Below, piece after piece: positions 5,761 to 8,315 of a DNA stretch of 8,315 bases; position 1 is the stretch's first letter; each line of letters opens with the position of its first letter. The stretch lies in assembly GCA_005191425.1 (NCBI GenBank), contig SUPR01000125.1, positions 1 through 8,315 on the forward strand, given 5' to 3'. Under the pieces are notes generated by a model. That model did not search any database. It was given only the letters and a program-made list of their open reading frames with translations, and was not told where the DNA came from. A program made the translations under genes and the position numbers. This DNA comes from Candidatus Helarchaeota ASGARD archaeon Hel_GB_B (lineage in GTDB: Archaea; Asgardarchaeota; Lokiarchaeia; Helarchaeales; HEL-GB-B).

Positions 5761-6411
5761 TTATTCATGTCTTAAATTAAAAGGTCTTCCCTCTTCTAAT
5801 ACCTCTTTTGAAATTAAATCTTTCCACTTGTTTAAAAATTTGATTTCATCTTTTTTTACACGTAAATTATCGGGCAACATCTGTGGTATTGCTTCGGAAA
5901 TAGGGTACCATCTTTTACAATTATCACAAATCATTATACCATCTTGAATTTCAGCTCTCTGAAAATACCAATTTAATAGATATATATTTGTTATCTGTCC
6001 CTCAATAAAATTTTTTACTTTATTTTCATCAGTGATATTTACTACATTTAGAAAATTGTTGTAAATGTCAATTACTTTATTATGAATATCTTTTGGATAA
6101 CCTTCAGTCAAAATCTCAATGTATTCCAGATTTTTAAGAATTTCAACAGCCTTATCGATATATTCTTTAAATTTTAATTGATAGCGCACTAAATCATCTT
6201 GAATCGTATCATCTTTAATAATAACACAATCTTCGGCCTTATCTTTTTTCCTAACAATTTTGGTCAAATTTTTTAAAATTTTAATGTCTTTAAGTCCTTC
6301 TATAGCCTTTTTAAATGTTTCATCTGGAGTTTCCCAGCTGAATACTTGAAGTCTTATTGGCCAATGCTTGCATATCGGGCATGCAAGTAAATCTAATAAT
6401 CCTAGCTTCAT
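5761..6411 (-). CDS. trm112: Trm112-family methyltransferase activator with a large internal insertion (216 aa from ATG 6411; 218 aa from ATG 6417)
   Basis: The N-terminus MKLGLLDLLACPICKHWP and the C-terminal half EIQDGIMICDNCKRWYPISEAIPQMLPD form the split Trm112 zinc knuckle. The tail FLNKWKD...EGRPFNL resembles long archaeal Trm112 proteins. Confidence 0.88.
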   Translation of the reverse strand: MKLGLLDLLACPICKHWPIRLQVFSWETPDETFKKAIEGLKDIKILKNLTKIVRKKDKAEDCVIIKDDTIQDDLVRYQLKFKEYIDKAVEILKNLEYIEILTEGYPKDIHNKVIDIYNNFLNVVNITDENKVKNFIEGQITNIYLLNWYFQRAEIQDGIMICDNCKRWYPISEAIPQMLPDNLRVKKDEIKFLNKWKDLISKEVLEEGRPFNLRHE

Positions 6412-6495
6412 AATCATCCCATAAAAAAATTATATATTTTTATTTTTTTCATTTTGATTTAAAATTTTATTCTATTTAATAAATCTAACTTTTTA

Positions 6496-7548: not shown

Positions 7549-7759
7549 TTTACGCCACAAAAATCCTTTAATTTAAAATTTACTGAGTTAAAATTAACAA
7601 AATTCATTTTTTAAGAATCAAATTTATATTATTTTTTTCAAGTTCATTAATTATTTCTTTTTAAATGTTAATTACTTCTGTTTTTTAACTTATATTCCTA
7701 CTATTTTTAAAAAGTTAGAAAAGATATATTAATTTTCTATTTATTATATTTTCAGTATA

Positions 7760-7769
7760 TTTATATAAA
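7760..7769. promoter_or_regulatory. Palindromic TATA-box candidate TTTATATAAA in the DUF1786/selD divergent region
   Basis: A perfect 10-bp palindrome reading the archaeal consensus TTTATATA on both strands. Confidence 0.4.
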
Positions 7770-7775
7770 CAATAT

Positions 7776-7782
7776 GGAGGTG
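7776..7782 (+). promoter_or_regulatory. Shine-Dalgarno site (GGAGGTG) for selD
   Basis: A perfect archaeal SD in otherwise extremely AT-rich DNA, 8 nt upstream of the in-frame GTA 7791. Confidence 0.65.
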
Positions 7783-7790
7783 CAAGTCCC

Positions 7791-8315
7791 GTAAAAGAAA
7801 ATTATCGACTTACCAGACAAGTAAAAATCCATGGTTGAAGTTGCAAAATAGATAAATTAGAATTAGACAAGTTATTGGAAACATCTAACATAAAAATTAG
7901 ATCTCCTAAAATTATCATGGGGATCGGAGATGATGCTGCAGTTATAAAAATTAATGATGAGTTAGTCGCTATTAAATCAATTGACGTTTTTACTCCAATT
8001 ATAGATGACCCAATATTACAAGGAAAAATCACTGCCTGCAATGTTACAAATGACATTTATGCAATGGGTGCCACCAACATTATTGGTGTCCTTGTATTCC
8101 TTGCTATTGACCCAGAGATGCCCCTTGAAGTTTCATCAGGCATTCTTAAAGGGTTTCAGGAATTTAGTATTAATAATGGAACCACTATAATTGGTGGACA
8201 AACAATCCAAAATCCTTGGCCCCTAATTGGCGGCGAAGCAACTGCTATTTGGCCAATTGATAAAGTAATATATTCTTCAAATGTAAAAATTGATGACTAT
8301 TTAGTCTTAACAAAA
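7791..8315 (+). CDS. selD: Selenide, water dikinase (selenophosphate synthetase), selenocysteine-containing, 3'-truncated by the window edge
   Basis: Manual translation gives (V/M)KENYRLTRQVKIHG-U(TGA 7836-7838)-SCKIDKLELDKLL...MGIGDDAAVIK...KSIDVFTPIIDDPILQGKITACNVTNDIYAMGA...KGFQEF...IIGGQTIQNPWPLIGG...DYLVLTK. These are the hallmark SelD motifs, closest in style to Methanococcales-type SelD (LT..VK.HGU.CK). The start codon is uncertain. Confidence 0.95.
7836..7838 (+). other. In-frame UGA recoded as selenocysteine (catalytic residue of SelD)
   Basis: The TGA sits in U-S-C-K, equivalent to C17-x-C19-K20 of E. coli SelD. SelD-like sequence continues in frame on both sides. Confidence 0.92.

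Follow-up and report, generated by a model that had tools for sequence, protein, structure and literature searches.

The 3' end of the window, as the whole analysed stretch of DNA (8,315 bp) is called here, raises the question whether an in-frame UGA within a gene for SelD terminates translation or is read as Sec. The frame from position 7791 reads VKENYRLTRQVKIHG-U-SCKIDKLELD... and stays open through the last base of the window. Counting from GTA 7791, the UGA (7836-7838, + strand) is codon 16; it is preceded by ...YRLTRQVKIHG and embedded in H-G-U-S-C-K (7830-7847, + strand), which corresponds to the N-terminal catalytic loop of SelD with its Sec/Cys plus Lys. Since the mechanical ORF list is restricted to the post-TGA part of selD (7875-8315), the N-terminus of the selenoprotein stayed hidden there. 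Both observations from which the sequence-only reading had started, an in-frame TGA in HG-U-SCK followed by SelD sequence up to the window edge and the absence of a Sec-containing SelD from the ORF track, can be read directly from the DNA. Taking all evidence together, it is very probable that 7791-8315 represents the 5' half of a functional selD, in which the UGA at 7836-7838 is decoded as Sec by recoding of the archaeal/eukaryotic type.

The part of selD present in the window (7791-8315, + strand) comprises the 175 N-terminal codons and is cut off by the contig end. This fragment scores 142.3 bits with the SelD equivalog TIGR00476 (cut-off 125), and its residues 46-151 (7926-8243, + strand) match the N-terminal, ATP-binding AIRS domain of SelD (PF00586, 57 bits). 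The second domain of the two-domain SelD architecture, AIRS_C, is seen only in L072, a contig of the same species with 99.8% identity to the window. Here the full-length protein is matched end to end by NF010705 with 331.1 bits (cut-off 291) and reaches 228.9 bits on TIGR00476, which demonstrates the identity of the gene. The Gly-rich loop with Sec/Cys and a Lys three residues further on is present, and H-G-U-S-C-K is kept in all relatives; from E. coli SelD (Cys17, Lys20), we take this loop to contain the catalytic residues, Cys/Sec and Lys. Among named SelD proteins, the nearest belong to Lokiarchaeota/Promethearchaeota MAGs.

The window is the entire contig C31 of the draft genome (a MAG) of a Helarchaeales-type Asgard archaeon, which has 3.54 Mb (182 contigs, 28% GC, 93.7% complete) and can therefore not be extended within the assembly. 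Searching the assembly for the C-terminal half of selD by tblastn with four full-length relatives yielded only paralogues, and the DNA located 3' of selD in the sister contig L072 has no counterpart in this genome. In the congener G001, the contig carrying selD (G001:C378, L023) ends 65 nt past the selD stop, so that two independent MAG assemblies of the genus break inside selD or shortly behind it. The next genes in L072 encode a 432-residue leucine-rich-repeat protein (7233-8531) and an AhpC/TSA peroxiredoxin (8832-9350).

Among the 41 genomes searched, the window's own and 40 relatives of the same class, SelD was found in 38. Exactly one TGA occupies the Sec site in 47 of the 48 SelD matches, and the alignment of the 48th stops short of the site. 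Conservation of the UGA is accompanied by coding selection across it. For nine independent sequences, taken from the order and from close relatives of it, the pairwise differences at codon positions 1, 2 and 3 amount to 0.26, 0.20 and 0.56, respectively, in the 11 codons 5' of the UGA, compared with 0.44, 0.25 and 0.58 in the 11 codons 3' of it and 0.61, 0.59 and 0.68 in the 57 nt further 5'. The bias of this variation towards the third position places the peptide (Y/F)RLTxxVxxHG ahead of the UGA under protein-level selection. Moreover, L072, which stems from an independent NCBI assembly, differs from the window by 12 mismatches over 6,468 nt and carries the same TGA. Contigs from public runs of three studies cover 7836-7838 with zero variants, and the contigs of run X4 are without coverage of 7744-7935. 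At the contig level (L072 and the contigs of the three studies), a TGC or TGT at 7836, which the sequence-only reading had set against its own proposal, does not occur. For this uncultured archaeon, RNA runs containing the selD stretch are not listed among the public runs.

Directly downstream of the UGA, no obvious bacterial-type SECIS hairpin had been noticed, and this proved correct: the 80 nt from the UGA onwards (7836-7915) fold with -5.7 kcal/mol (z = +0.10), 102 of 200 shuffled sequences fold as well, and zero Rfam matches were obtained in the window at E <= 1. The SECIS had instead been expected 3' of the selD stop, outside the window and possibly in a eukaryote-like form. An AUGA...AA element of eukaryote-like (Loki) type is indeed found at this place in the 99.8%-identical L072, and five relatives have a SECIS at the equivalent place. 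The absence of the SECIS from the window is explained by the break of the assembly at 8315, which truncates the gene. In L072, selD comprises 347 codons and ends with TAA (L072:6985-6987). The SECIS (L072:6977-7054; L073:3917-3994 and L087:2384-2459 in two relatives) begins within the gene, since the last two codons (GUGGU) pair with a downstream GCCAC to form the closing helix. Two bases past the stop, AUGA opens a stem of 8-10 bp with a loop that starts with AAAA. An extra hairpin, which is short and GC-rich in the three-armed elements of selD and vhuD and has 5 bp in L072, lies 3' of the AUGA hairpin and inside the closing helix, giving rise to a three-armed outline. The 3' closure of the core reads AUGA...UAA in L072 and G001, AUGA...UGA in L073, L087 and G004, and AUGA...GGA in G006.

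In the close relatives, this SECIS is present and shows covariation. RNAalifold on five selD 3' elements gave 21 pairs; compensatory changes occur in 8 of these, including GUGG/CCAC versus GCGG/CCGC in the closing helix, and the three A columns of the apical loop are all invariant. Folded alone, the L072 element reaches -18.7 kcal/mol (z = -2.6). A covariance model built from five selD elements, with G001 left out, recovered the G001 element at 60 bits; elsewhere it found L088 at 17 bits and did not reach the vhuD and class-level selD elements. Its best score was 10.5 bits within the window and 22 bits (E about 0.3) across the remaining assembly, and neither search revealed a SECIS. A MAFFT alignment of selD with vhuD SECIS elements was structurally inconsistent and was not used. 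The selD element presumably functions as the SECIS of this gene. Its consensus fold has a plain apical loop and is thus distinct from the type II form, which is defined by an apical ministem; two Asgard papers (PMC4989117, PMC11227280) present selD SECIS elements mostly as type II with an apical ministem. The published type II fold and the three-armed fold may be different drawings of related sequences.

The prediction that the genome encodes a full Sec system was borne out on a single contig, C9, with a reservation concerning the kinase. EFSec (C9 6218-7621; Pfam aSelB_III) scores 278 bits with TIGR00475 (cut-off 242), and SepSecS (C9 7618-8946) scores 482 bits with TIGR03531 (cut-off 225). 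A KTI12/PSTK-type kinase (C9 22431-23195) reaches 157 bits with TIGR03574, under the equivalog cut-off of 290.5, and is the PSTK candidate as the best and only KTI12-type match in the genome. An AIRS-family gene on the minus strand (C9:9001-9984), which adjoins SepSecS, was weighed as a further SelD but dismissed, since it scores only 46 bits on SelD and 362 bits on the 'methanogenesis marker 2' model TIGR03267 (cut-off 365), in a non-methanogen lineage.

The gene for tRNA-Sec was located with the tRNA-Sec sequences of relatives as probes on the plus strand of C9 (C9:14937-15123), followed by an encoded CCA, with which the feature extends to 15126 (L018:14937-15126). Three insertions interrupt it: one of about 46 nt within the D-arm, for which two boundaries are possible, one of 24 nt at canonical position 37/38, and one of 27 nt within the T-loop. 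Removing the insertions in silico leaves a 90-nt RNA, which ARAGORN calls as tRNA-SeC(tca) and which folds as a 9/4 cloverleaf: nine base pairs make up the acceptor and four the T stem, the variable arm is long, and the discriminator base is G. In the congener G001 (G001:C3:39691-39884, L064), exons 2-4 are identical and exon 1 differs at 1-2 positions, set against strongly diverged insertions. Accordingly, the precursor would be spliced at three sites.

Because of its three introns, this tRNA-Sec is missed by standard tools. On the genome, RF01852 overlooked the unspliced gene and returned only a tRNA-Cys at 33 bits, and ARAGORN found no tRNA-Sec with or without intron mode. Rfam at E <= 1, applied to the window and C9:1-20000, yielded neither a SECIS nor a tRNA-Sec; its one match, a U54 snoRNA (E = 0.34), was taken as not real. 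ARAGORN detected 6-8 tRNAs altogether in this 3.5-Mb, 94% complete genome, which suggests that most of the tRNA genes are rich in introns, are split or are missing from the assembly.

SelD is not the only candidate selenoprotein of the genome. Four of the 11 MvhD/FlpD-domain matches contain one or two UGAs aligned to conserved Cys residues of paralogues, as seen in the motifs CNWC/CNKU and GCH/GUH, giving at least four Sec-MvhD/VhuD genes (3' ends at L079:1893-1966, L080:1409-1479, L081:1402-1481 and L082:1890-1965). A three-armed AUGA...GA element follows the stop in three of the four Sec-vhuD genes. In the fourth, on C118, the UGA within the AUGA core serves as the stop codon, and the arms could be parsed only partly.

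In the mechanism that we propose, PSTK and SepSecS would make Sec-tRNA(Sec) by using SelD's own product, and EFSec, the archaeal SelB, would bring it to the UGA. The recoding signal would come from a SECIS located in the 3' UTR rather than from a hairpin beside the UGA. What is missing 3' of the assembly break, half of the gene plus the SECIS, would be as in L072, with 347 codons and a Loki-type element two bases past the stop, the core of which is predicted to be a kink-turn-type AUGA...AA hairpin with an A-rich loop, plus closing helix and second hairpin.

Three other explanations of the in-frame UGA have to be weighed against decoding as Sec. If it were a true stop, the protein would start downstream, with ATA 7848 read as Met, and the 15 codons upstream would be a leader. 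A gene caller indeed let the corresponding protein on the same-species contig (P0002) begin with MDKLELDK right after U-S-C-K, and the region upstream of the UGA contains zero canonical start codons. However, such a protein would be devoid of the Sec/Cys-x-x-Lys loop required for catalysis. The 11 codons ahead of the UGA show the third-position bias and the conserved (Y/F)RLTxxVxxHG described above, the match to NF010705 sets in at residue 3 if the protein is started at GTA, and the whole Sec machinery exists together with a SECIS. Termination at the UGA is therefore highly improbable. The absence of an ATG, GTG or TTG start in combination with an internal TGA could also mark selD as a decaying pseudogene, which has lost its start and acquired an in-frame stop. 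Yet both apparent defects are kept across the order, in which SelD proteins are only about 50% identical, the remaining gene is intact and under purifying selection, and the full-length copy scores above the equivalog cut-off. Moreover, no other SelD was found in the genome, although several selenoprotein genes need SelD, and decay of the gene is thus even harder to credit than termination.

That the TGA reflects an assembly or sequencing error, or a genome-wide reassignment of the codon, for example to Trp or Gly, is conceivable only a priori for a draft MAG. An error is contradicted by the identical TGA in L072 and the contigs of the three studies. Reassignment is excluded by TGA ending 216 of the 1,368 long open frames of the genome (15.8%), and the in-frame TGAs of MvhD align with Cys only. 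We assign almost no probability to either variant, and decoding of the UGA as Sec is the reading kept below.

The sequence-only reading marked 7791-8315 for SelD, and one point needs correcting: the codon at 7791 is GTA and no recognised start codon. The N-terminus is bounded by the nearest in-frame stop upstream, TAG 7716-7718 (+ strand), and between this stop and the TGA at 7836 there is no in-frame ATG, GTG or TTG. A perfect Shine-Dalgarno-like (SD) motif, GGAGGTG (7776-7782, + strand), is situated 8 nt before GTA 7791-7793 (+ strand), the presumed non-canonical initiation codon of selD. This GUA shares only one base with AUG and lies only 15 codons ahead of the UGA-Sec. Comparison of the window (7716-7838) with the selD loci L023, L024, L026, L027, L072, L073, L087 and L088 revealed that a canonical in-frame start is also absent from five further sequences of the order or near it. 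The layout of SD motif and start position is found in every order member and three metagenomic relatives. GGAGGTG is kept upstream of selD in G001, G004, G005, G006, L073, L087 and L088. It is followed at a distance of 8 nt by GTA in L072, L073 and L087, as in the window, by ATT in G001, by CTG in G006 and by ACG in G004, and at a distance of 6 nt by GTA in G005 and ACG in L088. The sole compared member with an ATG at the homologous codon is G003, in which the weaker SD motif AAGGAAG precedes it by 8 nt. In G005 and L088 an in-frame GTG or TTG exists, but it lies within the SD motif.

The relatives also limit where the protein can begin. In-frame stops are found immediately ahead of GGAGGTG in L073 (TAA) and two codons ahead of GTA in L087 (TGA), and G001, G004 and G006 have stops a little upstream, so that the N-terminus of selD cannot lie further 5'. 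Position 4 of NF010705 aligns to residue 3 of the GTA-started protein, the length of which thus fits. The sequence of the start region is confirmed in independent assemblies and is no assembly artefact. GGAGGTG is a rare motif in the genome; it occurs 121 times, 7 of them before a canonical start. As 106 SD-led long ORFs have a canonical start, the missing start is not a habit of this genome; the sole other 'start-less' candidate looks spurious.

From the sequence comparison we infer that selD of this order starts at a weak non-canonical codon that is placed by a strong SD motif. For the full proposal the chances appear evenly balanced: selD of the order and of its close relatives would be translated from such a codon, set by GGAGGUG, and a deliberately weak start on the one selenoprotein required by the Sec pathway itself would throttle ribosome loading ahead of the slow UGA-Sec codon. 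To our knowledge, GUA has not been described as a natural archaeal start. Literature precedent for such starts in Asgard archaea was not found, and in the searched text of the Asgard Sec papers (PMC4989117, PMC11227280) start codons are not mentioned. The AUU start of E. coli infC, a weak non-canonical codon behind a strong SD motif, offers a likeness for the selD start only. In contrast to infC, selD here belongs to an archaeon, its start codon changes with the lineage (GTA, ATT, CTG, ACG), and a regulatory loop would be hypothetical. If true, the selD start would mean that initiation at codons other than AUG, GUG and UUG occurs naturally in those archaea that are closest to eukaryotes, and it would affect a gene where translational throttling makes mechanistic sense.

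Initiation at GTA competes with termination-reinitiation after an out-of-frame mini-ORF of six codons, ATG GAG GTG CAA GTC CCG TAA (7774-7794, + strand), which overlaps the SD motif and the TAA of which overlaps GTA 7791. A similar mini-ORF occurs in L087 and G006 and is absent in G001 and L073; being present in some lineages only, it makes reinitiation less consistent with the data than direct initiation at the codon behind the SD motif. A programmed -1 frameshift from ATG 7774 was rejected as a general mechanism, since a slippery heptamer is missing and a comparable ATG mini-ORF is absent from G001, L073 and G004. An upstream exon joined by a BHB intron was likewise dismissed, as the divergent neighbour gene of L073 begins about 70 nt upstream of the SD motif.

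Sec-containing SelD with a eukaryote-like SECIS in the 3' UTR is the usual, already published arrangement in Asgard archaea. The first description is that of Mariotti et al. 2016 (PMC4989117). The survey of Huang, Xiao & Zhang 2024 (PMC11227280) includes the Lokiarchaeia/Helarchaeales clade and gives SelD as the most widespread Asgard selenoprotein, present in 87% to over 90% of Sec-utilising genomes. The same enzyme with a single UGA in an HG-U-xCK loop and the same set of tRNA-Sec, PSTK, SepSecS and EFSec are described in these papers. The Asgard SECIS elements presented there lie in the 3' UTR near the stop and have an AUGA...GA/AA core and an A-rich loop, like the selD element found here. 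The succession of AUGA, a stem of about 9 bp, an A-rich loop and GA or AA corresponds exactly to the published lokiSECIS, the AA variant of which has also been published. The tRNA-Sec departs from this agreement, since a single T-loop intron is reported for the Loki tRNA-Sec (PMC4989117), compared with three insertions in the gene on C9.

Methanococcales and Methanopyrus also possess a Sec-SelD, in which the UGA occupies the same loop and the SECIS lies in the 3' UTR, and the relative L020 shows a Methanococcus-like SelD N-terminus, MKLTELVKLHGU. According to the two Asgard papers, the SECIS elements of these methanogens are of the classical GAA_A type, in contrast to the AUGA...GA kink-turn type found here. 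Eukaryotic SEPHS2, a Sec-SelD orthologue, has a type II SECIS in the 3' UTR with an AUGA/GA quartet and unpaired adenines, which resembles the selD element; the stem of the latter, however, is shorter, its arms are arranged otherwise, and its genome context is prokaryotic with an SD-like motif. According to PMC4989117 and PMC11227280, no SBP2 is known in Asgard archaea.

In itself, the assignment of selD as a selenoprotein gene matters for annotation only. The public model of the same-species selD (GCA_054387055.1, P0002; L072:6001-6987) starts at ATA directly after U-S-C-K and is consequently devoid of the Sec loop required for catalysis; the same truncation is seen in P0003, which comes from a Lokiarchaeota MAG. 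As gene finders cut off the Sec loop and miss the tRNA-Sec, automated pipelines would regard the Sec trait as incomplete in this genome. With its three presumed splicing events, the tRNA-Sec illustrates how Asgard MAGs with the Sec trait can be under-counted in surveys that rely on Secmarker, tRNAscan or Rfam. Together with this three-intron tRNA-Sec, the start-codon anomaly and the three-armed SECIS are the parts that deserve a further look.

In class-level relatives of family f4, many genomes have a pair of Sec-selD genes on a single contig, separated by 1-3 kb, for example at G007:C5:26607-28444, G016:C18:41753-44057 and G013:C51:14826-18596. These pairs agree with the multiple selD genes reported by Huang et al. 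2024 (PMC11227280). Elsewhere in the window, a 489-codon ORF without a Pfam match (1392-2861, - strand) lies beside a glycosyltransferase gene. A 218-residue Trm112p-like protein is encoded at 5761-6417 (- strand), in which the 40-position Trm112p profile is spread over residues 4-175, indicating that a large insertion splits the zinc ribbon.
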